From assembly GCF_000017305.1 (NCBI RefSeq), contig NC_009664.2:3660001-3692000 (forward strand): a stretch of 32,000 nucleotides of DNA, read 5' to 3'. Both the position numbers and the translations under genes were made by a program. The stretch is from Kineococcus radiotolerans SRS30216 = ATCC BAA-149 (GTDB lineage Bacteria > Actinomycetota > Actinomycetes > Actinomycetales > Kineococcaceae). This document shows positions 2,041 to 15,480 of this stretch, in pieces (position 1 is the stretch's first letter; each line of letters starts with the position of its first letter). The notes below the pieces were generated by a model. That model worked only from the letters and a program-made list of their open reading frames with translations. It ran no database searches and was not told the DNA's origin.

Positions 2041-2092
2041 AGCCCGGGTGGCGCGGGCGGGTACGCAGGACGCACACGAGGGGGACCGCCTG

Positions 2093-3355
2093 ATGTCGGA
2101 GTCGCTGGACCTGAGCAAGCCGCTGGACCCGCCGGCCGTGCCGGCCACCCCGCCTGCCCCGGACCTGCAGCTGACCCCGCCGGCCCCGGTGCCGGTGGTC
2201 GCCGACGAGCAGGCCGAGGGGATGATCCCCCTCGACGAGGCGACGCGGGCGGAGCTGCACCGCAAGGCGCAGGCCTTCGTCGCCGACCTCGCCGCGCAGG
2301 ACCCGCGCAGCCCCGCCTTCCAGAAGAAGGTCGACGACATCACGCGCATGGGGGAGCAGGAGGTCCGCTCCTCGGCGCAGGTCTCCAACCGCATGCTCGA
2401 GCGCCCGCAGTCCAGCCTGGCCGGGGCCAAGGGGCAGAAGGCCTCCGGGCCCGGGGCCGACGCGCAGGTCAAGGTCGCGAGCACCCTGCTGGAGCTGCGC
2501 CAGACCGTCACCGCCCTCGACCCCGGCCGCGCCGACCTCAAGGGCGTGCGGAAGATCCTCGGGATCATCCCCGCGGGCAACAAGATCCAGCGCTACTTCG
2601 AGCGCTACGCCGACGCCCAGTCCCAGCTCGACGCGATCATCAAGGCGCTGGCCAGCGGGCAGGACGAGCTGCGCAAGGACAACGCCTCCATCGAGTCCGA
2701 GAAGCAGAACCTCTGGACGACGATGGGCAAGCTCACCGAGTACTCCACGCTGGCCAAGGCCCTGGACGCGGCGACGGTGGCCAAGATCGACGAGCTGCGG
2801 GCGACGAACCCCCAGGCCGCGGAGGCCCTCACCGCCGACGCGCTGTTCCCGATCCGCCAGCGCCACCAGGACCTGCTGACCCAGCTCGCCGTCAGCGTGC
2901 AGGGCTACCTCGCGCTGGACCTGGTGCGCAAGAACAACATCGAGCTCATCAAGGGCGTCGACCGGGCGCAGACGACGACGGTGGCGGCCCTGCGGACCGC
3001 GGTGATCGTGGCGCAGGCGCTGGCCAACCAGAAGCTCGTGCTCGACCAGATCAACGCGCTGAACACCACGACGAACCAGATGATCCTGTCGACCTCGGAG
3101 ATGCTCAAGCAGCAGACCGGCCAGATCCACGAGCAGGCCTCCACGGCCACGGTGGACGTGGCCACGCTGCAGAAGGCCTTCGACAACGTCTTCGCGACGA
3201 TGGACGCGATCGACACGTTCAAGCAGCAGGCCGTGGTGAGCATGGCGAACACCGTCGACGCCCTCGAGGGGCAGGTGCACCGCTCGCGGTCCTACCTGGA
3301 GCGCGCGCGCAACGGCGAGCAGGGCGCGGGTCCCGCGCTGGAAGGTCCCCGGTGA
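2093..3355 (+). CDS. telA: Toxic anion resistance protein TelA family
   Basis: This is ORF 2048..3355, starting at the ATG at 2093 ([12 protein letters not shown]…). It is a long all-helical protein with the TelA-type layout (…[27 protein letters not shown]…[13 protein letters not shown]…[22 protein letters not shown]…[11 protein letters not shown]…). A Pro-rich N-terminus is common in actinobacterial TelA. Confidence 0.9.
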
Positions 3356-4272
3356 GCTCGGTGGCCTCCTCCCGCGCCGACCAGCGCCCCTCCCGGGCGC
3401 TGAGGCGGGCTGCCGCGGCCGAGGGGAGGGTCGTGCGGCGCGGCCCCGCGCAGGCCCCGCCGGAGCTCGTCTCGCGCCGGCTGCGCAGCCGCACCTGGCG
3501 GGCCGCGAACTCGTGGTGGCTGGCGATCCCGGCGCTGGGGCTGCCGTGGCTGGCGTTCCTCTACATGGGGTTGCGCGGGCGGCGGCCGCAGTGGGTGCTG
3601 GCCGCGCTCGGCTACCTCGTCGCGATGGGCGGGGCCGCCACCGGCCTCGGCCTCGGTCTGGGCCTGGCGACGGGCCACGAGCTGTTGTTCCTCGTGCTGG
3701 GTTCCCTGCTGGGCGCCGGCACCTGGGGATTGGGACTGGTGCACTCGATCATGGCGAACTCGACGTGGCTGCGGATCAAGGCGGCCTTCACGGGCGAACC
3801 CGCCCTGGAGGCCCCGACGACCCCGGCGGTGCCCCCGGCCCCCGCCGACCCGGTGAGCGGGCTGCAGGAGGCCCTGCGCGAGGTCGTGCGCACGGCCAAC
3901 CGCCACGGCGGCCGCCTGCCCGACGGGGCCGTGCCCGCGGTCCGCGAGGTCGAGGACGTGCTGCGGCCGCTGCTGGCCCACGTCGCCCGGCGCGGCGCGG
4001 AGGTCGAGGAGCTGCACAACCTCGAGGCCATCGTCACCGAGTACCTGCCCGGGGCGCTGGAGCACTACCTCGACCTGCCCCCCGACTACGCCGAGACCCA
4101 CCGGCTGCCGTCGGGGCTCACCCCGGCCGAGGAGCTCGTCAACCAGCTGCGGCTGCTGGTGGACGGGTCCCGGGACCTCCAGCGCGCCGTCCACGACCAC
4201 GACGCGCAGAAGCTGTCGGTCCAGGGCCGGTTCCTCGACGCGAAGTTCCGCCGCTCGGACCTGGACCTGTAG
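3352..4272 (+). CDS. XpaC-like membrane protein, paralog 1 (3 predicted TM helices plus a conserved C-terminal helical domain)
   Basis: This is the tail of ORF 2017..4272. GTG at 3352 overlaps the telA stop (GTGA). Predicted TM segments are WWLAIPALGLPWLAFLYMGL, WVLAALGYLVAMGGAATGLGLGLGLA and LLFLVLGSLLGAGTWGLGLV. The C-terminal domain (…YLPGALEHYLDLPPDYAETHR…TPAEELVNQLRLLV…GRFLDAKFRRSDLDL) is shared with the next two genes. The XpaC assignment (5-bromo-4-chloroindolyl phosphate hydrolysis family) rests on the known TelA-XpaC gene pairing and on architecture. Confidence 0.7.
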   Translation: MSSVASSRADQRPSRALRRAAAAEGRVVRRGPAQAPPELVSRRLRSRTWRAANSWWLAIPALGLPWLAFLYMGLRGRRPQWVLAALGYLVAMGGAATGLGLGLGLATGHELLFLVLGSLLGAGTWGLGLVHSIMANSTWLRIKAAFTGEPALEAPTTPAVPPAPADPVSGLQEALREVVRTANRHGGRLPDGAVPAVREVEDVLRPLLAHVARRGAEVEELHNLEAIVTEYLPGALEHYLDLPPDYAETHRLPSGLTPAEELVNQLRLLVDGSRDLQRAVHDHDAQKLSVQGRFLDAKFRRSDLDL

Positions 4273-4281
4273 GAGGACGCG

Positions 4282-5178
4282 GTGGGTGTCGATCTCGGCA
4301 AGGGCGACGGGACGCGGGGCCCGCGGACGCGCGAGCCGCTGCCGGAGGTGACTCCCGCGGTGGCTCCGGAGGTGGCTCCGGAGGTGGCTCCGGAGCGGCG
4401 CCCCGGCGCGACGGTGGCGCGGACGACGCCCCCACCGGCGCCGTACCAGCGGCGGGAGCCGTCGCTCCCGGCGGCGGACGAGGCGCGGGGGCTGAACCCG
4501 CACGCGATGGGGGTGTTCACCACGGCGTGGACGGCGGGGTGGATCGTCGCCTTCGCCACCCACCTCTGGTGGCTGGGCCTGATCATGCTCCTGATGCAGG
4601 GCGCGGTGTTCGGCTACGTCAAGCAGCAGGGCCTGCCGTGGGCCGGGCCCGGGCGCGCGGCCCGCCGCGCCCGGCGGCTGGAGCGCCACCGCGAGCGGGC
4701 GCGCCGCCGCGGCGCGCTCGCCCCGCCCCCGCCCGCGGTCCCGGAGCTGCCCGACCCCGTCACCACCGCCGAGCGCCGGCTGGCCGCGGTGCTCGTCACG
4801 GCCGAGACCTCCGGGGGCCGGATGGACCCCGAGGCGGTCGAGCTGGTCCGCGAGGTCGACCGGCTGCTGCGCCCGCTGCTGGCCCAGGTGCGGACCCGCG
4901 ACGCGGACCCGCAGGTCCGCCACGACCTGGAGACCCTGGCCGGGGAGCACCTGCCGCGCACCGTCGAGGACTACCTCGTCCTGCCCGACGACTACGCCCG
5001 CACCCACCGCACGGCGGCGGGCACGACCCCGGCCGACGAGCTGCGGGCCCAGCTGCAGCTGCTCGTCGAGGGCTGCCGGCAGGTGCGCGACTCCCTCCTC
5101 AGCCGCGACGTGGACCGTCAGCAGCAGCAGAGCCGGTTCCTCGAGGCGAAGTTCCGGCGCTCCGACCTGGACCTGTGA
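4282..5178 (+). CDS. XpaC-like membrane protein, paralog 2
   Basis: This is ORF 4282..5178. The GTG start is preceded by AGGAGG 5 nt upstream. It has two TM helices (VFTTAWTAGWIVAFATHLWWLGLIMLLMQGAVFGYV), an Arg-rich stretch, and a C-terminal domain ending SRFLEAKFRRSDLDL. Confidence 0.8.
   Translation: MGVDLGKGDGTRGPRTREPLPEVTPAVAPEVAPEVAPERRPGATVARTTPPPAPYQRREPSLPAADEARGLNPHAMGVFTTAWTAGWIVAFATHLWWLGLIMLLMQGAVFGYVKQQGLPWAGPGRAARRARRLERHRERARRRGALAPPPPAVPELPDPVTTAERRLAAVLVTAETSGGRMDPEAVELVREVDRLLRPLLAQVRTRDADPQVRHDLETLAGEHLPRTVEDYLVLPDDYARTHRTAAGTTPADELRAQLQLLVEGCRQVRDSLLSRDVDRQQQQSRFLEAKFRRSDLDL
4359..4394 (+). repeat. Perfect 12-nt tandem repeat x3 (GTGGCTCCGGAG), in frame, encoding (V)APE repeats
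   Basis: The identical unit sits at 4359-4370, 4371-4382 and 4383-4394 in the N-terminal disordered region of paralog 2 (…TPAVAPEVAPEVAPE…). Confidence 0.95.
4912..4972 (+). repeat. 61-nt block near-identical (60/61) to 5787-5847 in the next paralog
   Basis: CAGGTCCGCCACGACCTGGAGACCCTGGC[C/G]GGGGAGCACCTGCCGCGCACCGTCGAGGACT appears in both genes and is identical at synonymous sites. The flanking codons diverge. Confidence 0.95.
5106..5155 (+). repeat. 50-nt block identical (50/50) to 5981-6030 in the next paralog
   Basis: CGACGTGGACCGTCAGCAGCAGCAGAGCCGGTTCCTCGAGGCGAAGTTCC occurs in both genes and contains a (CAG)4 run. Confidence 0.95.
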
Positions 5179-5186
5179 GGACGGCC

Positions 5187-6053
5187 GTGGGGATCGAACT
5201 GCGCAAGGGCGACGACGACCGGGACCGGCCCCGTCGGGTGGTCCTGCCCGAGCGCGAGGTCGAGGTCATCGGCCCGAACGACCTCGAACCGCGCCTGGGG
5301 GCGAACCTCCCGGTGCTCGGGTGGGTCTCCGACCCCGTCTTCCAGCTCGTCCGGTTCGTCGGCCTGGGCGGCTGGATCGTCCTCTACGCCGCCCTCGGGC
5401 CGCTGGGCCTGTGGTGGGTGGGGTTCATCGCGATGTGGGCCTGGATCGGGGCGAACGTGGCCTACGAGAACGAGGCCCGGCGGCGGCGCCGGTTGCGGCG
5501 GCACTACCGGCGCGCGATCAAGTACGGGACGCTCGCCCCGGTGCCGGTCCTGCTGCGCCCGGAGGAGGCCGCGCCGGTGGTCCGGGAGCAGCGGCTCGCG
5601 GCGGCGGGGGCGCCCGCCGTCAGCGCGCCGCAGGTGACCGCCGCCGAGAAGGCCCTGGTCGCCACGGTCCGCCGGGTCGACACCGCCGTGGACCGCTTCG
5701 AGCGCACCGACGTCGTCCTCGTCCACGAGGTCGCCGACCTGCTCGGCCCGCTGCTGCTGCGCATCGCCGAGCGGGGCGGGGACCCCCAGGTCCGCCACGA
5801 CCTGGAGACCCTGGCGGGGGAGCACCTGCCGCGCACCGTCGAGGACTTCCTGGCCCTGCCGCCCGACGTCGCCCGCGGCAGCCGCAACGCCGCGGGGTCC
5901 ACCCCGGCGGAGGAGCTGCGCAACCAGCTGCACCTCATGGCCGACGGCTGCCGGCAGCTGCGGGAGGCGGTGCTCTCGGCCGACGTGGACCGTCAGCAGC
6001 AGCAGAGCCGGTTCCTCGAGGCGAAGTTCCGCCGCGGGGACCTGGACCTGTGA
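5187..6053 (+). CDS. XpaC-like membrane protein, paralog 3
   Basis: This is the tail of ORF 3513..6053. The GTG at 5187 is preceded by GAGGA 5 nt upstream. The protein reads VGIELRKGDDD…, then two TM helices (FVGLGGWIVLYAALGPLGLWWVGFIAMWAWIGANV), then ARRRRRLRRHYRR. The C-terminal domain is about 60-70% identical by eye to paralog 2 and ends SRFLEAKFRRGDLDL. Confidence 0.8.
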   Translation: MGIELRKGDDDRDRPRRVVLPEREVEVIGPNDLEPRLGANLPVLGWVSDPVFQLVRFVGLGGWIVLYAALGPLGLWWVGFIAMWAWIGANVAYENEARRRRRLRRHYRRAIKYGTLAPVPVLLRPEEAAPVVREQRLAAAGAPAVSAPQVTAAEKALVATVRRVDTAVDRFERTDVVLVHEVADLLGPLLLRIAERGGDPQVRHDLETLAGEHLPRTVEDFLALPPDVARGSRNAAGSTPAEELRNQLHLMADGCRQLREAVLSADVDRQQQQSRFLEAKFRRGDLDL

Positions 6054-6092
6054 CCCTCGCGGTGCCCGGTCCGGTGCGGTAGGAAGGGGACC

Positions 6093-6884
6093 GTGACCCT
6101 CGACGTGCAGCTCGTCGGTTCCACGACCCAGATGGCCGTGGTGACCCTGCGTCCCGGGCAGACGCTGTACTGCGAGGCCGGGAAGTTCCTCTTCTCCTCC
6201 GGCGACGTGGTCATGGAGACCAAGCTCACCGCGCCCGGCGGCGGCGAGGGGGGCGGCCTCGGCGGGCTGCTGCGCGGCGCGGCCCAGGCCGGCAAGCGGG
6301 TGCTGGCGGGGGAGTCCTTCGCCTTCCAGCACTTCCACACCCCCGGCGGCGACGGGCTGCTGGGGCTGGCCGGCGTCCTGCCCGGCGAGATGCGCCACCT
6401 GGAGCTGGACGGCTCGACGACGTGGTTCGCCGAGAAGGACGCCTTCGTGGCGGCCGAGGCGGGGGTGCACTTCGACATCGCCTTCTCCGGGGTGGGACAG
6501 GGCCTCATGGGCGGGGAGGGGTTCATCCTCGAGAGGTTCACCGGCCGCGGGTCGCTGCTCATCGCCGGCGCGGGCGACTTCATCGACATCAACCCCGCCG
6601 ACTACGGCGGCACCCTGCGGGTCGACACCGGCTGCGTCGTCGCCTGGGACGACCGCATCACCTACGGCGTCGAGACCGTGGGCCGGCTGAACCGGCAGGG
6701 GATCGTCAGCGCCGTCCTCGGCGGTGAGGGGCTGACCCTGGCGACGCTGCGCGGCGACGGGCGCGTCATCCTGCAGTCGGTCACCATCGAGGCCTTCGCC
6801 AAGGCGCTGGTCAAGAACAGCGCCAAGCCCGACCAGCAGGGCCTCGGGGCCCTGGGCGGGTTGTTCGGGGGCTCCCGCGGCTAG
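6093..6884 (+). CDS. AIM24 family protein (DUF124/TIGR00266-type)
   Basis: This is ORF 6093..6884 with a GTG start after AGGAAGGGGA. Blocks typical of AIM24 proteins include …[18 protein letters not shown]…, [46 protein letters not shown] and [20 protein letters not shown]. Confidence 0.85.
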
Positions 6885-6979
6885 CGGGACCTCCCCGGGC
6901 ACCAACCGGGCCCGGTGATCGTTGGGCCCACCGCAAGCGGTCACACCACCGAACGCAGCGACGAAACGGAGCGAACACC

Positions 6980-7555
6980 ATGGGCGTCAGCCTCAGCAAG
7001 GGCGGCAACGTCTCCCTCACCAAGGAAGCGCCGGGGATGACCAAGGCCGTCATCGGCCTGGGCTGGGACGCGAACTCCTTCACCGGCTCGGAGTTCGACC
7101 TCGACGCGCAGGCCATCATGGTCGGCGCGAACGGCAAGGTCCCCAGTGACGGCTACTTCGTCTTCTTCAACCAGCTGAAGTCCCCCGAGGGCTCCGTGGA
7201 GCACACCGGCGACAACCGCACCGGTGAGGGCGACGGCGACGACGAGAAGATCAACGTCGACCTCAGCCTCGTGCCCGCCGAGATCGAGAAGATCGTCTTC
7301 ACCGTCGCCATCTACGACGCCGACACCCGCAAGCAGTCCTTCGGGCAGGTGCGCAACGGCTTCATCCGCGTGGTCAACAGCGAGGGCGGCACCGAGGTCG
7401 CCCGCTACGACCTCACAGAGGACGCCTCCACCGAGACCGCGATGGTCTTCGGCGAGCTGTACCGCAACGGGTCGGACTGGAAGTTCCGCGCCGTCGGCCA
7501 GGGCTACGCCGACGGTCTGCGCGGCATCGCGACCGACTTCGGCGTCAGCGTCTGA
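6980..7555 (+). CDS. terD: TerD family stress protein (Ca2+-binding TerD domain)
   Basis: This is ORF 6980..7555 with an ATG start. The sequence is canonical: [15 protein letters not shown]…IGLGWD…FDLDAQAIM…[21 protein letters not shown]…[11 protein letters not shown]…FGQV…[10 protein letters not shown]. Confidence 0.95.
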
Positions 7556-7566
7556 CGCACTCCACC

Positions 7567-7596
7567 GCGCACCGTCCCCGGCCGGGGACGGTGCGC
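7567..7596 (+). terminator. Perfect GC-rich hairpin downstream of terD (intrinsic-terminator-like, no U tract)
   Basis: GCGCACCGTCCCC-GGCC-GGGGACGGTGCGC forms a 13-bp perfect stem 12 nt after the terD stop. The missing U tract is common in high-GC actinobacteria but lowers confidence. Confidence 0.5.
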
Positions 7597-7676
7597 GTTC
7601 GCACGTCGTCCGCACGGCGGTGAGTAGGGTTCGAGGTCCGGCCCGCACGGGCTCCGCATGAACAGGAAGCTGACAG

Positions 7677-8819
7677 GTGATCCTCAAGACCTACCGCTGG
7701 TCCTTCGTCGTGACGGCCCTGGGGCTGGTGCTCGCCGCCTGGTACGGGCTGTCGGCCCACCTGGGCATCGGGCAGGCGATCGCCCTCGTCCTGATCCTCT
7801 CGATCCTCGAGATCAGCCTCTCGTTCGACAACGCCGTGGTGAACGCGACCATCCTGGAACGGATGAGCGACTTCTGGCGGAAGATCTTCCTGTCCGTCGG
7901 CATCATCATCGCCGTCTTCGGCATGCGGCTGGTCTTCCCCATCGTGCTGGTCAGCGTGACCGCCGGGCTGGGGCCGATCGAGGTCATCCGCCTCGCCCTC
8001 GAGGGCGGTGACCCGGAGACCCCGGGCACGTACGGCTACGAGCTGCACGAGGCCCACCCCACCATCGCCTCCTTCGGCGGCATGTTCCTGCTCATGCTCT
8101 TCCTCAACTTCATCTTCGGGGAGAAGGAGCACCACTGGCTCGGGCCGATCGAGCGCGCCCTGGAGAAGGTCGGCAAGCTCGACTACGTCCAGGTCATCGT
8201 GGCCGGCGCCGTGCTCCTCGTGGTGGCCGAGACCTTCGCCACCGAGCACGGCCGGACCGTCCTGGCCTCGGGTCTGGCGGGCATCGTGACCTACCTGCTC
8301 GTCAACGGCCTCGGCGAGCTGTTCAACGTCGAGGACCACGTCGAGCACGAGGACCCCGCCACCACCTCGGCCGGCACCACGGCCTCCGGCGTCAACGGCC
8401 CCAGCGGGGCGGCCCGGGCCACCGGCAAGGCGGCGTTCTTCCTCTTCCTGTACCTCGAGGTCCTCGACGCCTCGTTCTCCTTCGACGGGGTCATCGGCGC
8501 CTTCGCCATCACCTCCGACCCGGTGATCATCGCCATCGGCCTCGGCGTCGGCGCCATGTACATCCGGTCGATGACCGTGCACCTGGTGGAGGAGGGCACC
8601 CTCGCCCAGTACCCCTACCTGGAGAACGGCGCCCTGTGGGCCATCGGCGCCCTCGCGGTGATCCTGCTGCTGAGCATCGAGGTGGAGATCCCCGAGGTCG
8701 TCACCGGCCTCATCGGGCTGGCCTTCATCGTGGCCTCGCTCATCAGCTCCATCCGGTACAACCGGGCCCACCCCGAGGAAGCCCACGTCGAGCAGCACCA
8801 CGCGGCGCAGCCGGGCTGA
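7677..8819 (+). CDS. TerC-superfamily integral membrane protein (DUF475-like)
   Basis: This is ORF 7677..8819 with a GTG start. It is polytopic, with two copies of the TerC-type motif (LEISLSFDNAVVNA and LEVLDASFSFDGVIGAF). The N-terminus MILKTYRWSFVVTALGL is typical of actinobacterial DUF475 proteins found next to terD. Confidence 0.88.
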   Translation: MILKTYRWSFVVTALGLVLAAWYGLSAHLGIGQAIALVLILSILEISLSFDNAVVNATILERMSDFWRKIFLSVGIIIAVFGMRLVFPIVLVSVTAGLGPIEVIRLALEGGDPETPGTYGYELHEAHPTIASFGGMFLLMLFLNFIFGEKEHHWLGPIERALEKVGKLDYVQVIVAGAVLLVVAETFATEHGRTVLASGLAGIVTYLLVNGLGELFNVEDHVEHEDPATTSAGTTASGVNGPSGAARATGKAAFFLFLYLEVLDASFSFDGVIGAFAITSDPVIIAIGLGVGAMYIRSMTVHLVEEGTLAQYPYLENGALWAIGALAVILLLSIEVEIPEVVTGLIGLAFIVASLISSIRYNRAHPEEAHVEQHHAAQPG

Positions 8820-8829
8820 TCCGCCGAGC

Positions 8830-8859
8830 GGGACGGAGCGGGGGCGGGGGGTCGGCGGG
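8830..8859 (+). other. Potential G-quadruplex motif in the TerC-like/TerD-like spacer
   Basis: GGG-ACGGAGC-GGGGG-C-GGGGGG-TCGGC-GGG has four G-runs of at least 3 with loops of 7 nt or less. Such motifs are frequent in genomes this GC-rich. Confidence 0.3.
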
Positions 8860-8878
8860 CTGAGCAGGAGGGCGAGCG

Positions 8879-9718
8879 GTGAGCGGCGGGACGAACGCGC
8901 GGCCGGCGGAGGAGGTCCACAACTTCCTCGGCCGGCCCGGGCCGCGGCGCAGCCGGCGCACGCTGGCCGACCACCTGCAGCCCCCCCGCCCCCGCCCGGT
9001 GGTCACCACCCCGGCCCCGCCCGCTCCGCCGCCCGCGGCGCGGGTCGCGCCCCCCGCCCCGGCGCGGGTCGCGGCCCCCGCCCCGGTCGTCGCCGTCGGG
9101 CAGGCCCGGGCCAGCGAGCGCCGGGTCGTCCTCGACGACGAGCGCCCCACCGCCACGATCCCCGCGGCCGAGCGGGCCTCGGGGACCCTGCGCATCACCC
9201 TGCGCTGGGAGCGGCAGGTCACCGCCGCCGGTCTGCACCGTTCCACCGACGTCCACCTCGGGTGCCTCTGGGAGACCCGGGACCGTCACGCGGGTGCGCT
9301 GCAGTCCCTGGGTGACCTGCTCGCCGCCCCCGGCTTCGGCGCCCGCCAGGTCCTGCGGCTGGGACCGCGCAGCGAGCAGGACGGCGAGGAGGTCCTCGCC
9401 GACGCCGCCCACCTGAGCCTGATGCGCCGGATGGTCCTGTACGTCTACGCCGTCGGGCCCAACCCCCCGGACTACCGGCGGCTGGCCCCGCACCTGACCC
9501 TCGCCCGCCGCGGCGGGGGCACCCTGCAGATGTGGGCGGGCGAGCCGCCCCCGGGGGCGCGCACCTGCGTCATCGCCTCCGTGCACGACGTCGGCGGCGA
9601 CCTCGTCGTCCGCCGCGAGGACGAGTTCCTCCCCGGGACCGCGCGCGACGTCGCGCTCGCGTACGGGTTCGACGACCTCGACTGGAACTCCGAGGGCACC
9701 GTCCCGCGTCCTTCCTGA
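8879..9718 (+). CDS. Degenerate TerD-like domain protein with a Pro/Ala-rich N-terminal extension
   Basis: This is ORF 8879..9718 with a GTG start. Residues from about 95 to 279 follow the TerD fold pattern (…LRITLRWER…DVHLGCLWE…VLRLGPRSEQDGEEVLADAAHL…MVLYVYAV…CVIASVHDVGGDLVVRREDEFL…ALAYGF). The [13 protein letters not shown] calcium motif is replaced by GPRSEQDGEE. Confidence 0.7.
   Translation: MSGGTNARPAEEVHNFLGRPGPRRSRRTLADHLQPPRPRPVVTTPAPPAPPPAARVAPPAPARVAAPAPVVAVGQARASERRVVLDDERPTATIPAAERASGTLRITLRWERQVTAAGLHRSTDVHLGCLWETRDRHAGALQSLGDLLAAPGFGARQVLRLGPRSEQDGEEVLADAAHLSLMRRMVLYVYAVGPNPPDYRRLAPHLTLARRGGGTLQMWAGEPPPGARTCVIASVHDVGGDLVVRREDEFLPGTARDVALAYGFDDLDWNSEGTVPRPS
9037..9084 (+). repeat. 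24-nt tandem repeat x2 (23/24 identical), in frame
   Basis: GGCGCGGGTCGCG[C/G]CCCCCGCCCC sits at 9037-9060 and 9061-9084 and encodes ARVAPPAP/ARVAAPAP in the disordered N-terminus of the TerD-like protein. Confidence 0.9.
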
Positions 9719-9752
9719 GCACACCCCATCCACCACGAGAGAGGGGCCCACC

Positions 9753-10331
9753 GTGGCCGTCAGTCTGAACAAGGGCCAGAAGCTGTCGCTGGAGAAGTCC
9801 GGCGGGGGCAGCCTCACCCGCGTCTTCATGGGCCTGGGCTGGGACGCCGTGGCCAAGGGCCTGTTCCGCAAGAAGGCCGTCGACATCGACCTCGACGCGA
9901 GCGTGCTGCTCTTCGACGCGCAGCGCCGGCTGGTCGACGAGGTGTGGTTCCAGCAGCTGCGCAGCAAGGACGGGTCCGTCGTCCACAGCGGCGACAACCT
10001 CACCGGCGAGGGGGAGGGCGACGACGAGGTCGTCCACATCGACCTGCCCGCGGTGCCGGCCCAGGTGCAGACCCTCGTCTTCACGGTGTCCAGCTTCACC
10101 GGCCAGGACTTCTCCCAGGTCCAGAACGCCGTCTGCCGCCTCGTCGACGCCGCCCAGCCGCAGCCGGTCGAGCTCGCCCGCTACGAGCTGTCCGACGCCG
10201 GACCGCACACCGCGCAGATCATGGCCAAGCTCACCCGCGAGGGCAGCGGCTGGGCCATGACGGCCATCGGCGCACCCGCCCAGGGCCGCCACATCCGCGA
10301 CCTCCGCGACGCCGTCGCCGCCCACGTCTGA
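9753..10331 (+). CDS. terD: TerD family stress protein (second canonical copy)
   Basis: This is ORF 9753..10331 with a GTG start after GAGAGAGGGG. The sequence reads MAVSLNKGQKLSLEK…GLGWD…VDIDLDASVLLFD…HSGDNLTGEGEGDDEVVHIDL…LVFTVSSF…WAMTAIG. Confidence 0.93.
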   Translation: MAVSLNKGQKLSLEKSGGGSLTRVFMGLGWDAVAKGLFRKKAVDIDLDASVLLFDAQRRLVDEVWFQQLRSKDGSVVHSGDNLTGEGEGDDEVVHIDLPAVPAQVQTLVFTVSSFTGQDFSQVQNAVCRLVDAAQPQPVELARYELSDAGPHTAQIMAKLTREGSGWAMTAIGAPAQGRHIRDLRDAVAAHV

Positions 10332-10346
10332 GCCGCTGAGCCCAGC

Positions 10347-11564
10347 GTGCGGCACTTCAGCACCCTCGACGCGGAGCGGGAGCGGGACCTCTTCCTCCAC
10401 CCCCCGCGACCGGTCGACGTCACCGCCGGGCGCGACGAGCTCGCCGTCGCGCTCGGCGCCACGCTGTACTGCCCCGCGACCCGCGAGCGCCTGGCGGGGG
10501 ACCTGCTGCGGCTGGCCCGCCGCGGGGTCCTCTCGGCCGTGGCGTGCCTGGAGGACTCCGTCCCCGACCACCGCGTCGCCGAGGCCGAGGAGATCCTCGT
10601 CCGCGAGCTCGCCGGCCTGGCCCGCACCCCCGAGTGGCGCGACGGGGCGCCCCTCATGCTCTTCGTGCGGGCCCGGACCCCGCAGCAGCTGCTGCGCGTC
10701 GTCGAGCGCAGCGGCGTCGGGCTGGACTGCCTGACGGGGTTCGTCGTCCCCAAGTTCGGGGGCGGCGGGCAGCCCTCCCCGGACGAGTGGCTGGAGGCGG
10801 TCAGCACCGCCTCCGAGCGGGCGGGGCGGCGGATGTGGGCCATGCCGGTCCTGGAGAGCCGCGACGTCGCGCACCTGGAGACCCGCCGCGAGGCGCTGTT
10901 CGCCATCCGCGACGTGCTCGACGCCCACCGCGAGGTCGTCCTCGCCGTGCGCACCGGGGCCACCGACCTCTCCGCCGCCTACGGGCTGCGCCGGCCCCGG
11001 GGGGCCACCGTGTGGGACGTCCGGGTCGTGGCCGACGTCCTCGGCGACGTCATCAACGTCCTGGGCCGCGCCGACGGCAGCGGCTACCCCATCACCGCCC
11101 CCGTGTGGGAGCACTTCTCCTCCGGGGAACGGGTCTTCCGCACCTCCCTGGCGGCCCGGCCGTTCGCGGAGTCCGGGTCGGTGGGCCTGCGCGAGCAGCT
11201 CATCACCGACGACCTCGACGGCCTCGTGCGCGAGCTCGTCCTCGACCGCGTCAACGGGTTGCAGGGCAAGACCGTCATCCACCCCTCCCACGTCGCCGTC
11301 GTCCACGCCACGTCGGTGGTCACGCACGAGGACTTCTGCGACGCCTCCGACGTCGTGGCCCAGCACGGGGGCGGGGCGATGGCCTCGACCTACCGGAACA
11401 AGATGAACGAGGCCGGCCCCCACCGGGTCTGGGCCGAGCGCGTCCTGGCCCGCGCCCGCGCCTTCGGAGTGGCCCGCGAGGACACCACCTACGTCCACCT
11501 GCTCCAGGCGCAGGACGACGCCTGGCGCGCCTTCACCCGCTCACCGGAAGGGGCCCGCGCGTGA
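10347..11564 (+). CDS. HpcH/HpaI aldolase / citrate-lyase-beta-like TIM-barrel C-C lyase (Ter-associated type)
   Basis: This is ORF 10347..11564 with a GTG start. Blocks typical of the Ter-linked HpcH/CitE-like family include GATLYCPATR, ACLEDSV, FVVPKF, AMPVLES, RTGATDLSAAYGLRR and GKTVIHPSHV. It lies directly downstream of terD and upstream of the PRTases, as in the published Ter neighbourhood. Confidence 0.8.
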   Translation: MRHFSTLDAERERDLFLHPPRPVDVTAGRDELAVALGATLYCPATRERLAGDLLRLARRGVLSAVACLEDSVPDHRVAEAEEILVRELAGLARTPEWRDGAPLMLFVRARTPQQLLRVVERSGVGLDCLTGFVVPKFGGGGQPSPDEWLEAVSTASERAGRRMWAMPVLESRDVAHLETRREALFAIRDVLDAHREVVLAVRTGATDLSAAYGLRRPRGATVWDVRVVADVLGDVINVLGRADGSGYPITAPVWEHFSSGERVFRTSLAARPFAESGSVGLREQLITDDLDGLVRELVLDRVNGLQGKTVIHPSHVAVVHATSVVTHEDFCDASDVVAQHGGGAMASTYRNKMNEAGPHRVWAERVLARARAFGVAREDTTYVHLLQAQDDAWRAFTRSPEGARA

Positions 11565-12943
11565 ACCGCGTCGTCCCGCACGCCCCCGCCCGCACCCGGT
11601 GGGTCGCCGAGCGGCTCGGCGTGCACCTGGACGGGCCCGCCGGCGCCGACGGCCTCACCGTCCACGACCTGCTCGGCCTCGCCCTGCGGCGCAACCCCCG
11701 GCGCGCGCACCTGCTGGTCAGCGAGGTCCTCGGCAAGCACGTGCCCACCGACCCGCGGCTGGTGCGGGCGGCCGGGGCGCGCCTGGGCGGTCTCGTCGCC
11801 GACGTCCTCGGGGTGCCCGACGCCCCCGGGCCCGACGCCGGCACCTGGCGGGCGGCGCTGGCCGGTGACGAGCTCGCCACCGCCGCGGTGGCCGCCGGCG
11901 TGCAGCGCGCCCCGGCCCGCCCCGACGCCCTCGTCGTCGGCTACGCCGAGACCGCCACCGGGCTCGGGCAGACCGTCGCCGACGCCCTCGGCTGCGCCGG
12001 GCTGCACTCCACCCGCCGCGCGGTGCCCGGCGCCCTCGACTACGCCGGTTTCGAGGAGGAGCACTCCCACGCCACCGGGCACCGGCTGCTGCCGCGCGAC
12101 CCCGCCGTCCTCGCCGCCCTCGCCGACCCGACCGCCCCGGTCGTCCTCGTCGACGACGAGCTCTCCACGGGACGCACCGTCGCGAACACCCTGCGGGCGC
12201 TGCACGCCCGCTCCCCGCACCGGCACTACGTGGTGGCCGGTCTGGTCGACGTGCGCGCCGAGGCCGACCGGGCCCGCCTCGACGGGCTCGGCGCGGAGCT
12301 GGGGGCCCGCGTGGACGTGGTCAGCCTGGCGCGCGGCGTCGTGGACCTGCCCCCCGACGTGCTCGCCCGCGGGGCGGACCTCGTCGCGGGGGTGGCTCCG
12401 GTCGTCCCCGCGGCGGGTGCTCCCGCCGACGCGGTGCCGGTGCGGGTGGACTGGCCGAGCGGGGTCCCCACCACCGCCCGCTTCGGCACCGCGCCCGCCC
12501 ACGCGGAGCTGCTCGCCGGCGCCGACCTCGTGCGGCACCTGCTGCCGGAGGTGCGCACCGACGCCGAGGTCCTCGTCCTGGCCTCCGAGGAGCTCCTGCA
12601 CGCCCCGCTGGCCGTGGCCTGCCAGCTCGCCGCCCGCCACCCCGGGCGGGTGCGGTTCTCCTCCACGACGCGCTCGCCGGTGCTGGCCGTCGACGACCCC
12701 GGGTACGCGGTGCGCAGCTCGGTGGCCTTCACCTCCCACGACCCGGCCGTGGACGGCCCGGGGACCCGCTACGCCCACAACGCGGCCCGCGAGGGGGGCT
12801 GGGACGCGATCGTCCTCGTCGTCGACTCCGCCTCCGCGCCCACCGCGCTGCACGCCCCGGACGGCGTCCTCGCGGCGCTGGCCCCGCTCGCGTCGCGGCT
12901 GCTGCTCGTCACCCTGCCCGCCGACACCTGGAGCCCCCGGTGA
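11561..12943 (+). CDS. Phosphoribosyltransferase (Ter-associated PRTase_2-type with a C-terminal TRSP-like domain)
   Basis: This is the tail of ORF 10544..12943. GTG at 11561 overlaps the upstream stop (GTGA). The PRPP-binding loop is VVLVDDELSTGRT. The N-terminal HLLVSEVLGKHVP and GYAETATGLG blocks are typical of this family. Confidence 0.82.
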   Translation: MNRVVPHAPARTRWVAERLGVHLDGPAGADGLTVHDLLGLALRRNPRRAHLLVSEVLGKHVPTDPRLVRAAGARLGGLVADVLGVPDAPGPDAGTWRAALAGDELATAAVAAGVQRAPARPDALVVGYAETATGLGQTVADALGCAGLHSTRRAVPGALDYAGFEEEHSHATGHRLLPRDPAVLAALADPTAPVVLVDDELSTGRTVANTLRALHARSPHRHYVVAGLVDVRAEADRARLDGLGAELGARVDVVSLARGVVDLPPDVLARGADLVAGVAPVVPAAGAPADAVPVRVDWPSGVPTTARFGTAPAHAELLAGADLVRHLLPEVRTDAEVLVLASEELLHAPLAVACQLAARHPGRVRFSSTTRSPVLAVDDPGYAVRSSVAFTSHDPAVDGPGTRYAHNAAREGGWDAIVLVVDSASAPTALHAPDGVLAALAPLASRLLLVTLPADTWSPR

Positions 12944-14097
12944 CCTCGTCCACGGAACTGCCCACGCCCCTGTCGGGCCCGCGGTTCTCCTCCTACCTGC
13001 CCGACGAGGTGAGCTGGCTGCTCAGCGACCTGTCCGGGGTGGAGCTGGAGGCCCCGGCCGAGGAGCGCGAGGAGGCCATCCAGAGCGGCGGGGCGCACTA
13101 CGCGGAGTCGCTGCCGGTGGAGTACCAGCCGAGCGCGGAGTACCAGCGGCTGTTCGCCGACGCCCTGGACCGCACGGCCCGCCGGGTGGCCCTCGGGGTG
13201 GGGGTGGTGGCCGAGCTGCTGCGGGCCGAGCGGGGGGAGGAGCTCCTGCTCGCGTCCCTGGCCCGGGCCGGGACCCCGGTGGGGATCCTGCTGCGCCGCT
13301 GGGGGCTGCGCGCCGGGCTGCACTGGCCGCACGTCGCGGTGTCCATCGTGCGCGGGCGCGGCATCGACGAGGTCGCGCTGCGCTGGATCGCCGCCCACCA
13401 CGACCCCTCCGCGGTCGTCTTCGTCGACGGCTGGACCGGCAAGGGGGCGATCGTGCGGGAGCTGTCCGCCGCGCTGGCCCGCTTCCCCGGCTTCAGCGAC
13501 GACCTCGCCGTGCTGGCCGACCCCGGCCACTGCGTGCGCACCTTCGGCACCCGCGAGGACTACCTCATCCCCTCGGCGTGCCTGAACTCCACGGTGTCGG
13601 GGCTGGTGAGCCGGACGGTCCTGAACGAGCGGCTGCTGGCCCCGGGCCGGTTCCACGGGGCGAAGTTCTACGCCGACCTCGCCCCCGTCGACGCGTCGAA
13701 CCGGTTCCTGGACGTGGTGAGCTCCTGGTTCGACGACGTCGCCCCGGAGGTCCCGGCGGCGGTGGCGGTGGTGCGCGCGCAGGACCGCACGGCCACCTTC
13801 ACCGGCTGGGCCGAGGTCGAGCGGGTCAGCGAGCACTACGACATCGGCGACGTGAACCTCGTCAAACCCGGGGTGGGGGAGACGACCCGGGTGCTGCTGC
13901 GCCGGGTCCCGTGGCGGGTCCTGGTGCGCCCGGAGGCGGAGCTGCGCCACCCCGACGACCTCGCCCACGTGCGGTTGCTGGCCGCGCAGCGCGGGGTGGT
14001 CGTGGAGGAGGTGCCGGGGCTGTCCTACTCCGCGATCGGGTTGATCCACCCGCGATTCACCCGGGGGGCGACCGGCGCCGACGGGCGGGCGGTGTGA
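12940..14097 (+). CDS. StiP-type protein (annotated in databases as cysteine protease StiP; PRTase_1 fold, probable C-terminal PELOTA-like domain)
   Basis: This is ORF 12940..14097; its GTG overlaps the upstream stop. N-terminal blocks SSYLPDEVSWLL, EEREEAIQSGGAHYAESLP, YQRLF, LARAGTPVGILL and VFVDGWTGKGAI match my memory of StiP-family proteins encoded in Ter clusters. Confidence 0.75.
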   Translation: MTSSTELPTPLSGPRFSSYLPDEVSWLLSDLSGVELEAPAEEREEAIQSGGAHYAESLPVEYQPSAEYQRLFADALDRTARRVALGVGVVAELLRAERGEELLLASLARAGTPVGILLRRWGLRAGLHWPHVAVSIVRGRGIDEVALRWIAAHHDPSAVVFVDGWTGKGAIVRELSAALARFPGFSDDLAVLADPGHCVRTFGTREDYLIPSACLNSTVSGLVSRTVLNERLLAPGRFHGAKFYADLAPVDASNRFLDVVSSWFDDVAPEVPAAVAVVRAQDRTATFTGWAEVERVSEHYDIGDVNLVKPGVGETTRVLLRRVPWRVLVRPEAELRHPDDLAHVRLLAAQRGVVVEEVPGLSYSAIGLIHPRFTRGATGADGRAV

Positions 14098-14921
14098 GCG
14101 GGGGGAACGGCCTGCTGGCCGCCAGCGACCTCGACCAGACGCTGGTGTTCTCCGCCCGCTCGGCCGGGGTGGACGTGGCCGGGCTCGTCGAGGTCGAGGA
14201 GTACGAGGGGCGGGTCATCTCCTACGTGACCCCCGCGGCGTGGGCGCTGCTCGGGGACCTGGTGGCGTCGGGGCGCTTCCTGCCCGTCACCACGCGGACC
14301 CCGGAGCAGTACGCGCGGATCCGCTGGCCGGGAGCTGCGCCGCGGTACGCGGTGTGCGCCAACGGCGGGGTGCTGCTGGTCGACGGCGCCCCGGACGCGG
14401 CGTGGGCGCAGGTGGTGCGGGACCGGTTGTCCGGCTGCGCCCCCCTGGCGCAGGTGCACGCGGAGCTGGCGCGGCTGGCCGGGGAGCTCGTCACCGCGGT
14501 CCCGGGCTCGGAGGACCCCGCGGTGCGCAGCGTCCCGGGGTTGTTCGGCTACCTCGTCCTGCGCGAGGGGCAGCGCCCGGAGCTGGAGGGGACCCGCCTC
14601 GGGGACCTCACCGTGCGGCTGGACGGCTGGGGCTACGCGGTGTCCCTGCAGGGCCGCAAGCTCTACGCCGTCCCGCGCCCGCTGACGAAGTCGGCGGCCG
14701 TCGCGGAGGTGGTGTCCCGTCGCGGCGCCACGGGCTTCGTCTCCGCCGGGGACTCGCTGCTCGACGTGGACCTGCTCGTCGCCGCCCGCGCGGCGCGCCG
14801 CCCCCGCCACGGGGAGCTGCTGCGGGCCGGCTGGGAGCACCCCGGGGTGGAGCTCACCGCCGCGACCGGCGCGGCGGCGGGGGAGGAGATCGCGCGCTGG
14901 CTGGCCGGCGCCGTCGGCTGA
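14094..14921 (+). CDS. HAD-superfamily phosphatase (Ter-associated)
   Basis: This is the tail of ORF 11865..14921. GTG at 14094 overlaps the upstream stop. HAD motif I is ASDLDQTLVF (DxDxT), motif II is PVTTRT, and motif IV-like is SAGDSLLDVDLL. Confidence 0.8.
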   Translation: MSGGNGLLAASDLDQTLVFSARSAGVDVAGLVEVEEYEGRVISYVTPAAWALLGDLVASGRFLPVTTRTPEQYARIRWPGAAPRYAVCANGGVLLVDGAPDAAWAQVVRDRLSGCAPLAQVHAELARLAGELVTAVPGSEDPAVRSVPGLFGYLVLREGQRPELEGTRLGDLTVRLDGWGYAVSLQGRKLYAVPRPLTKSAAVAEVVSRRGATGFVSAGDSLLDVDLLVAARAARRPRHGELLRAGWEHPGVELTAATGAAAGEEIARWLAGAVG

Positions 14922-14928
14922 CGCGCCC

Positions 14929-15480
14929 CTACCGGCCCGCCCGCGCGGGGTCCTCGCGCGCGCGGTGGCGCAGGGCGGCGAGCGCCCCCGCCGCGGCGAG
15001 CAGCCACGTCGCGGCCCGGGCCGCCACGGCCACCGGGTCGCCCGCCGGCCCCGGTGGCAGGACGAGCGCCTCCAGCGCCGCCCCGAGCGGGACGAGGAGC
15101 CGCGCGAGCAGGCCGAGGGGGCCGGGGTCGCGCACCCGGGACCCGAGGAACCCCAGCACCGGGCAGACCAGCAGGCTCGCCGCCCACCAGGTCGCGTCCC
15201 CGCGCAGCGTGGCCGCCGGCGGCACCGCGCGCAGCAGCGCGTCGGCGAGGGCGAACGCGAGCAGGGCCGCGCTCGTCGCCAGCCACCCGGCCGCGGCCGC
15301 GCGCCGCGGCGTCCGCACGAGCGCACCGGTGAGGACGGCGAGCCCCGCCCAGGCCCACCCCGCGTTGAGCAGGGAACCGCCGAACCGGGCCCCCGGGGAG
15401 GAGGAGAGGTCGAGCGCGGCGTTCAGGGCGCCGAAGCCCGTGGCGAGCGCGAGGACGACCGGCGGTCGGGAGGAGGGCAC
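14929..15480 (-). CDS. Hypothetical polytopic membrane protein
   Basis: This is ORF 14929..15480. It has 5-6 hydrophobic Ala/Leu/Gly-rich segments and a strong G/C preference at codon position 3. I recognise no family. The GTG start directly abuts GGAGG, so the SD spacing is poor and the start is uncertain. Confidence 0.5.
   Translation of the reverse strand: MPSSRPPVVLALATGFGALNAALDLSSSPGARFGGSLLNAGWAWAGLAVLTGALVRTPRRAAAAGWLATSAALLAFALADALLRAVPPAATLRGDATWWAASLLVCPVLGFLGSRVRDPGPLGLLARLLVPLGAALEALVLPPGPAGDPVAVAARAATWLLAAAGALAALRHRAREDPARAGR

Follow-up and report, generated by a model that had tools for sequence, protein, structure and literature searches.

Ter genes occur widely among pathogens and soil bacteria and are tied to tellurite, colicin and phage resistance. 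We analyzed a 32 kb stretch of the Kineococcus radiotolerans SRS30216 chromosome (NC_009664.2, positions 3,660,001 to 3,692,000; hereafter the window) that carries an array of ter genes, and focused on a module of four enzyme genes located at positions 10347-14921 of the window. Because the G+C content is ~75%, naive lists of open reading frames (ORFs) were useless for the window, and genes were called by frame analysis of the GC content at third codon positions (GC3) and by reading of the gene junctions, followed by a Pfam check. The module consists of the following genes, with product lengths in amino acids (aa):

10347-11564, + strand: CitE-like C-C bond lyase, TIM-barrel, 405 aa, long Gram-positive subtype (Pfam PF15617)
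11561-12943, + strand: PRTase_2 + TRSP phosphoribosyltransferase (PRT2), 460 aa (Pfam PF15609, PF12500)
12940-14097, + strand: StiP (PRTase_1-type fold) + PELOTA_1 protein, 385 aa (Pfam PF11202, PF15608)
14094-14921, + strand: divergent HAD-superfamily phosphatase, 275 aa (PDB match, motifs I-IV)

Each of the three junctions among these genes is a GTGA overlap of 4 nucleotides (nt), in which the GTG start and the TGA stop share 3 bases; the GTG start of PRT2 thus overlaps the stop of the lyase gene. Independent gene calls on public contigs with identical DNA agree with these four gene products. An earlier interpretation made from the letters of this DNA (the sequence-only reading) had described four translationally coupled genes at 10347-14921, and this description is exact. 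The two strings that it quoted are exact as well, namely the phosphoribosyl pyrophosphate (PRPP) loop VVLVDDELSTGRT of PRT2 (aa 194-206, nt 12140-12178) and DLDQT at aa 12-16 of the HAD protein. A co-directional array of 13 plus-strand genes (2048-14921), with intergenic gaps of at most 121 nt, ends at its 3' side with the module. The four enzyme genes are linked to Ter genes by a TerD gene located 15 nt upstream of the lyase gene, and by a second TerD gene, a DUF475/TerC gene, a TerA-like gene and TelA within the same array.

All four window proteins are orthologous to proteins of the E. coli IncHI2 ter island, as revealed by tblastn (lyase, E 4e-32; PRT2, 7e-26; StiP, 1e-49; HAD, 2e-9), and orthologs of all four enzymes are also present in the Klebsiella and Pseudomonas ter islands. 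The four E. coli orthologs bear out the identification, made in the sequence-only reading, of the module as the Ter-associated biosynthetic enzyme set, which was proposed by Anantharaman, Iyer & Aravind in 2012 (as cited in PMC11994780 and PMC7824862). Of the domains expected at the locus, PRTase_2, TRSP, StiP and PELOTA_1 were recovered by Pfam and the lyase was placed in PF15617; the HAD protein had no Pfam match and was assigned to its superfamily through the PDB and its motifs. In the three proteobacterial plasmids examined, the gene order is ATPgrasp-PRT2-HAD-StiP-Lyase and the lyase is shorter. Compared with the five-enzyme definition of the module, the window contains the PRTase_2+TRSP, StiP/PELOTA_1, HAD and PF15617 lyase genes and the Ter linkage, and its cluster lacks the ATPgrasp_Ter gene; every feature of the Gram-positive four-gene form is present. 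The module occurs in two architectures, and that of the window is a regular example of the Gram-positive type.

The sequence-only reading had found no ATP-grasp-like ORF in the window, and Pfam, tblastn and a dedicated hidden Markov model (HMM) agree. Pfam placed no ATP-grasp domain on any real gene of the window, and a permissive scan (E ≤ 5) of the genes at 3433-6053 and 8879-9718 and of the ORF at 14929-15480 returned nothing ATP-grasp-like. When the E. coli Ter ATP-grasp was searched against the window by tblastn, the best E-value was 0.53, for a chance match inside the lyase ORF. The ATPgrasp_Ter HMM, built from the three ATP-grasps of E. coli IncHI2, Klebsiella and a P. aeruginosa megaplasmid and run with filters off, matched no six-frame ORF of the window at E ≤ 10. 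The positive control was good, with the E. coli and Pseudomonas ATP-grasps confirmed as members of PF15632, and among 15,362 six-frame ORFs the HMM recovered only its three seeds, the next best match having an E-value of 1.5.

Relatives of the locus were collected by a StiP-alignment scan with one genome per species, which yielded 80 loci; the flanking 10 kb were complete on both sides in 60 of these. The genera in this census are all actinobacterial (Kineococcus, Streptomyces, Actinacidiphila, Kitasatospora and Jatrophihabitans); one locus, L012, comes from a metagenome-assembled genome labelled Janthinobacterium, and its StiP is 80% identical to the window StiP. The order Lyase-PRT2-StiP-HAD was found in all 74 loci that cover the region, the other six being cut by contig ends, and ATPgrasp_Ter was detected in none of the 80, searched over up to 10 kb on each side. 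The same arrangement, with no ATP-grasp, is present in Nocardia farcinica and in the Pfam-annotated neighborhood of S. rimosus. No ATP-grasp was found on two complete plasmids that carry the module, M. abscessus pGD25-3 (23.6 kb) and Lactococcus pFI430 (59.5 kb), and the same four-gene order following terD and terC was described in 2025 for Bacillus altitudinis 3W19 (PMC11994780).

Based on the actinobacterial loci, Nocardia, the two complete plasmids and B. altitudinis, all of which are without ATP-grasp, the absence of this gene is the ordinary Gram-positive form and not a special shortened variant. The sequence-only reading had suggested that the pathway may be a shortened variant, or that the ligase may be encoded elsewhere. 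The version in which the arrangement is peculiar to this genome is refuted, as the same arrangement occurs across the Gram-positive relatives and is normal in every one sampled. A ligase at another chromosomal site would be compatible with a 32 kb window that has no ATP-grasp, the searches in K. radiotolerans having been confined to that window; it is at odds with the uniform order in the 74 actinobacterial loci, Nocardia and B. altitudinis, and with the two mobile plasmids, which carry a whole ter system and the module and no ATP-grasp. Since the module moves between hosts without the ligase, dependence on it is unlikely, and we consider a variant or distant-ligase explanation improbable. The module is carried along with the ter genes on small mobile plasmids, which argues that the Gram-positive form is self-sufficient without the ligase. 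The amide-ligation step of the ATP-grasp is probably confined to the proteobacterial form and no part of the Gram-positive one.

In pGD25-3 (L097, 1-23599), a plasmid of a clinical isolate, a complete ter system that includes the four-gene module takes up approximately half of the sequence. An abortive-infection family gene and a DUF1524 gene are present as well, and the cargo resembles a small package for defence or stress. Upstream of the lyase of pGD25-3 lies an unannotated gene of 394 aa with no Pfam match, whose Streptomyces relatives map near the S. rimosus gene called VTT_dom. The six-frame ORFs of this complete plasmid gave nothing significant with the ATPgrasp_Ter HMM; no blastp of this gene against ATP-grasps was made. 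In the plasmid collection, StiP is present in 2573 records and ATP-grasp in 2509. Degraded or partial modules were also observed: a Brevibacillus plasmid (L095) contains Lyase-PRT-StiP with no annotated HAD, and a Rhizobium plasmid (L096) contains PRT-HAD-StiP, followed by IS21 and a group II intron, with no annotated lyase or ATP-grasp. StiP occurs in ~41 Rhizobium plasmids, and Rhizobium does not rank in the top ten of genera by frequency of ATP-grasp matches.

The two phosphoribosyltransferase (PRTase)-like proteins are encoded side by side in the center of the module. PRT2 contains PRTase_2 (PF15609, E 3.4e-61) and TRSP (PF12500, E 6.7e-29) and has weak similarity to PyrR, OPRT and APRT. 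Within its PRPP loop, V195, L196, D198, D199, E200, T203, G204 and T206 are invariant among 15 sequences from two phyla. The sequence-only reading had staked its case on the PRPP-binding and HAD catalytic residues, and both sets are conserved on alignment. The StiP protein (StiP, PF11202, E 3e-101; PELOTA_1, PF15608, E 3.7e-32) has a variant PRPP-like loop, FVDGWTGKGAI, at nt 13420-13452. An AlphaFold (AF2) model of StiP was obtained with moderate confidence (predicted local distance difference test, pLDDT, 71.7; predicted TM-score, pTM, 0.78), and Foldseek revealed that its core best matches PyrR/HGPRT and its C-terminal domain Pelota/L7Ae.

In 74 of 78 actinobacterial loci (L013-L090), PRT2 and StiP form one continuous ORF of ~850-890 aa with no intervening stop, a count that was checked by junction translation, ORF listing and Pfam in a Streptomyces-heavy sample. 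Examples are L066:8492-11170 (892 aa) and L089:8618-11173 (851 aa), and the Pfam order along the fused polypeptide is PRTase_2-TRSP-StiP-PELOTA_1. The Kineococcus window, with separate PRT2 and StiP genes joined by the GTGA overlap, represents the minority state in this sample. Because the two are fused in most actinobacterial relatives, PRT2 and StiP may act as one unit, for which the fusion is Rosetta-stone evidence. The fusion probably accounts for the many database proteins of 480-667 aa that are labelled 'partial' and contain TRSP, StiP and PELOTA.

The resemblance of these proteins to PyrR raises the alternative of a module that serves mainly in sensing or regulation, in which StiP-PELOTA and PRTase_2 would bind nucleotide and RNA in a PyrR-like manner to control the ter genes. 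Consistent with this are the best match of the StiP core to PyrR, the K-turn-binding L7Ae/Pelota type of its C-terminal domain, the weak PyrR-likeness of PRTase_2 and the degenerate PRPP loop of StiP. On the other hand, the PRPP loop of PRTase_2 is catalytically complete, the lyase and the phosphatase have intact active sites and are strictly co-conserved and translationally coupled with the PRTase-like proteins, and Rfam at the gathering threshold detected no RNA element in the window. A mainly regulatory module is therefore unlikely in our view.

The fourth protein (14094-14921) had no Pfam or NCBIfam match, even at E ≤ 5. When the window HAD alone was searched against the PDB by phmmer, it matched 6d3v/6cj0 over the full length (E 6.8e-10), and the four HAD motifs were located as follows:

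14127-14141, + strand: motif I, DLDQT (aa 12-16), D12-x-D14-x-T16
14286-14300, + strand: motif II, VTTRT, T66
14682-14699, + strand: motif III, Lys in LTKSAA, K199
14748-14765, + strand: motif IV, GDSLLD, G219-D220-x3-D224

In an alignment of 20 sequences, which spans Kineococcus, E. coli and Pseudomonas, motifs I-IV are invariant. In the E. coli ter island, the ortholog of the window HAD is a protein of 257 aa called 'hypothetical', and in the Pseudomonas plasmid ter island a gene annotated 'Trehalose-6-phosphatase' (L010:9253-10011) lies between PRT2 and StiP. The extrachromosomal trehalose-6-phosphate phosphatase of P. aeruginosa served as an active enzyme in PMC6838324, and its structures 6D3V, 6D3W and 6CJ0 are attributed there to Cross et al. 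2018. The sequence-only reading called the product unknown in any organism, which is true of the product itself and is to be qualified for the enzymes, as this P. aeruginosa HAD ortholog has structures and a reported in-vitro trehalose-6-phosphate phosphatase activity. Our literature search returned no paper linking these structures to the Ter module.

The deposition of this ortholog as 'trehalose phosphatase' and its use as an active enzyme would favor a reading in which trehalose-6-phosphate is the genuine substrate of the HAD and the operon belongs to the metabolism of trehalose as a compatible solute under stress. Its genomic setting is different: in the loci seen, the gene always lies amid PRTase and ter genes and never beside trehalose-6-phosphate synthase, which was observed in no HAD neighborhood examined. 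The OtsB type is not supported either, as the window HAD has no Trehalose_PPase Pfam match and the E. coli ortholog scored 16 bits against a cut-off of 27. HAD phosphatases of the cap type seen here are often promiscuous in vitro. We therefore regard a trehalose operon as very improbable; the 'trehalose phosphatase' name of the structures, which has spread to the annotation of Pseudomonas plasmids, is probably misleading, and trehalose-6-phosphate is probably not the physiological substrate of the P. aeruginosa ortholog in its ter context.

There is hardly any likelihood that StiP is a cysteine protease processing a protein partner. In favor of a protease are the family name, which goes back to studies of StiP from Acinetobacter baylyi (cited in PMC11994780), and a Cys in the ADP-x-G loop (ADP(C)G(x)C) of all sequences. 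Against it, the position of this Cys differs, no Cys column is invariant across the actinobacterial and proteobacterial members, the top 50 PDB matches of the model include no protease, and in most actinobacteria StiP is fused to a bona fide PRTase. The sequence-only reading had suspected that the protease name is a misnomer, and this suspicion was justified: StiP is predicted to combine a PRTase fold with a Pelota/L7Ae domain, and the case against a protease is strong but not final, since the confidence of the model is only moderate.

The lyase belongs to the Pfam family C-C_Bond_Lyase (PF15617, E 4.5e-111). A single-sequence search of the PDB returned nothing at E ≤ 1, and the lyase profile matched structures of citrate lyase beta, malyl-CoA lyase, CLYBL and acyl-CoA lyase beta (E 6e-11 to 2e-5). 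Residues E69, D70, R108, E170 and D207, which are the CitE-type Mg and substrate residues, are invariant. Of the 'HpcH/CitE-like' description given previously, the CitE-like half holds and the HpcH label is less apt; based on the CitE-type residues and the profile matches to CitE, malyl-CoA lyase and CLYBL structures, 'CitE-like' appears to be the better label. Gram-positive lyases have a ~27-aa N-terminal extension and a ~30-aa insert (window aa ~262-295), both of which are missing from the proteobacterial lyases (e.g., L007:13053-14009). The long or short lyase subtype tracks the absence or presence of ATP-grasp.

Taken together, we consider it likely that the window encodes an ATP-grasp-less Gram-positive Ter module that makes a nucleoside-like product. 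The CitE-type Mg-dependent lyase, whose residues are conserved, would by analogy with its family make or trim a carboxylate or acyl-CoA-derived acceptor, to which PRTase_2-TRSP, with its intact PRPP loop, would transfer ribose-5-phosphate from PRPP. StiP-PELOTA would be in physical complex with PRTase_2, for which the fusion in 74 of 78 relatives serves as a proxy, and may carry out a second PRPP-dependent step or bind the nucleotide product or RNA in a PyrR-like manner. The HAD, with all motifs in place, would then strip the 5'-phosphate from its presumed substrate and free the nucleoside-like product; this step is backed by the ortholog, an active sugar-phosphate phosphatase in vitro. Following the literature, the product presumably works together with the membrane complex of TerD/TerC in the response to stress or phages.

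Several points weigh against this proposal. The chemical steps are all putative assignments from family membership, and the sole biochemical datum is the hydrolysis of trehalose-6-phosphate by the orthologous HAD, which is not obviously a fit to a nucleotide substrate. The StiP loop FVDGWTGKGAI has just one acidic residue, because of which StiP may be non-catalytic. An unlinked ATP-grasp may be present elsewhere in the K. radiotolerans chromosome, the search having covered the 32 kb window, and the census is dominated by Streptomyces. The view of the 2012 paper on ATP-grasp-less forms is taken from the account in PMC11994780. A literature search returned no functional work on the Kineococcus locus or on its Streptomyces orthologs, for which the numbers SCO2360-2364 were guessed.

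A broader proposal, which we put forward tentatively and hold to be possible but doubtful as a whole, is that the Gram-positive four-enzyme and the proteobacterial five-enzyme modules make two chemically different nucleoside-like molecules. It includes three companion claims under the same joint judgement, namely that no amide ligation would take place genome-wide in the Gram-positive form, that this form would be marked by a long lyase and a usually fused PRT2-StiP, and that the 'trehalose phosphatase' would be a nucleotide phosphatase finishing the pathway.

The array reads TelA, three membrane paralogs, AIM24, TerD, DUF475/TerC, TerA-like, TerD and the four enzymes. The genes preceding the module are:

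2048-3355, + strand: TelA (Pfam TelA, E 6.9e-92)
3433-4272, 4282-5178 and 5187-6053, + strand: three tandem paralogous membrane proteins, directly after TelA
6093-6884, + strand: AIM24 (Pfam AIM24, E 2.3e-55)
6980-7555, + strand: TerD-domain protein (Pfam TerD, E 3e-85)
7677-8819, + strand: DUF475/TerC-family integral membrane protein (Pfam DUF475, E 1.2e-124; TerC, E 4.9e-20)
8879-9718, + strand: divergent TerA-like protein, 279 aa, Pro/Ala-rich N-terminus (tblastn/blastp)
9753-10331, + strand: TerD-domain protein (Pfam TerD, E 2.9e-46)

The 279-aa protein (8879-9718) had no Pfam match, even at E ≤ 5. Its tblastn match to a P. aeruginosa plasmid falls inside a TerA-like gene (E 3.7e-9), blastp matched it to a M. 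abscessus 'Tellurium resistance' protein (E 1.9e-14), and it aligns with the C-terminal part of TerA-like genes in Pseudomonas. An ortholog is located between DUF475 and TerD in nearly all Streptomyces loci. The three paralogs at 3433-6053, likewise without a Pfam match at E ≤ 5, have transmembrane segments at the N-terminus and, at the C-terminus, a conserved domain of ~110 aa ending in RFL(D/E)AKFRR(S/G)DLDL. They could be unrecognised membrane partners of TelA, with a possible resemblance to XpaC.

Downstream of the module, a 183-aa hydrophobic ORF without family assignment (14929-15480, minus strand) runs toward the end of the HAD gene; the equivalent position in S. rimosus is occupied by a VTT/DedA-family membrane gene on the opposite strand, and in other Streptomyces loci relatives of the 394-aa gene of the M. 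abscessus plasmid map to this region. The module is followed by unrelated housekeeping genes, comprising an alpha/beta hydrolase, a pyridoxal phosphate (PLP) enzyme, an alpha-amylase family gene, ROK, panB, nadE, glnA and glnE. The anti-phage models of PADLOC-DB v2 matched neither the four enzymes nor the TerD/TerC proteins.

The locus is of an already known kind, in a long-sequenced genome, and as an ordinary representative of the Gram-positive form it leaves the picture of the Ter module unchanged. The identity of the product has been a real question since the 2012 proposal, and the window makes it no more testable than do thousands of Streptomyces genomes. The useful by-products of the analysis are the split into two architectures, the PRT2-StiP fusion and the link to mis-named crystal structures. 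The minimal conserved enzyme set comprises four proteins rather than five, as carried on small plasmids without ATP-grasp; the two PRTase-like proteins, being fused in most Streptomyces, are best treated as one unit; and the phosphatase family already has a crystal structure under a probably misleading name.

When compared with known enzymes, the window lyase shares the TIM-barrel fold family and the conserved Mg and substrate residues with CitE, malyl-CoA lyase and CLYBL, although the kinship is distant and the protein belongs to the separate family PF15617. With PyrR and the type I PRTases (UPRT, HGPRT, APRT, OPRT), PRT2 shares the PRPP-loop motif and StiP the fold; the window proteins differ in the added TRSP and PELOTA domains and in the degenerate StiP loop. 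The P. aeruginosa 'TPP' (6D3V/6D3W/6CJ0), which provides with 6D3V the closest structure to the window HAD, is of the same HAD family, aligns over the full length and keeps all catalytic motifs, whereas its identity to the window HAD is only ~25%.

At the level of whole modules, the proteobacterial five-enzyme form of IncHI2 plasmids, Klebsiella virulence plasmids and P. aeruginosa megaplasmids resembles the window in having four orthologous enzymes beside TerD/TerC. It is distinguished by ATPgrasp_Ter (PF15632), a lyase that is ~85 aa shorter, a shorter PRT2, and companion genes for DUF4236, TerW, TerY, vWA, PP2C and kinase proteins, whereas the window has no ATP-grasp, the order Lyase-PRT2-StiP-HAD and a DUF475-type TerC. 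The Gram-positive form, known from B. altitudinis 3W19, pFI430, pGD25-3 and the chromosomes of Streptomyces, Nocardia and Jatrophihabitans, shares with the window this order, the absence of ATP-grasp, the long lyase, the tight overlaps and the neighboring TerD, DUF475 and TelA genes. Within this form, the window differs in its split PRT2 and StiP, which are fused in 74 of 78 actinobacterial loci, and in its orientation: the TerD gene adjacent to the lyase has the opposite orientation in Streptomyces, whereas the 13 genes of the Kineococcus array are all co-directional.

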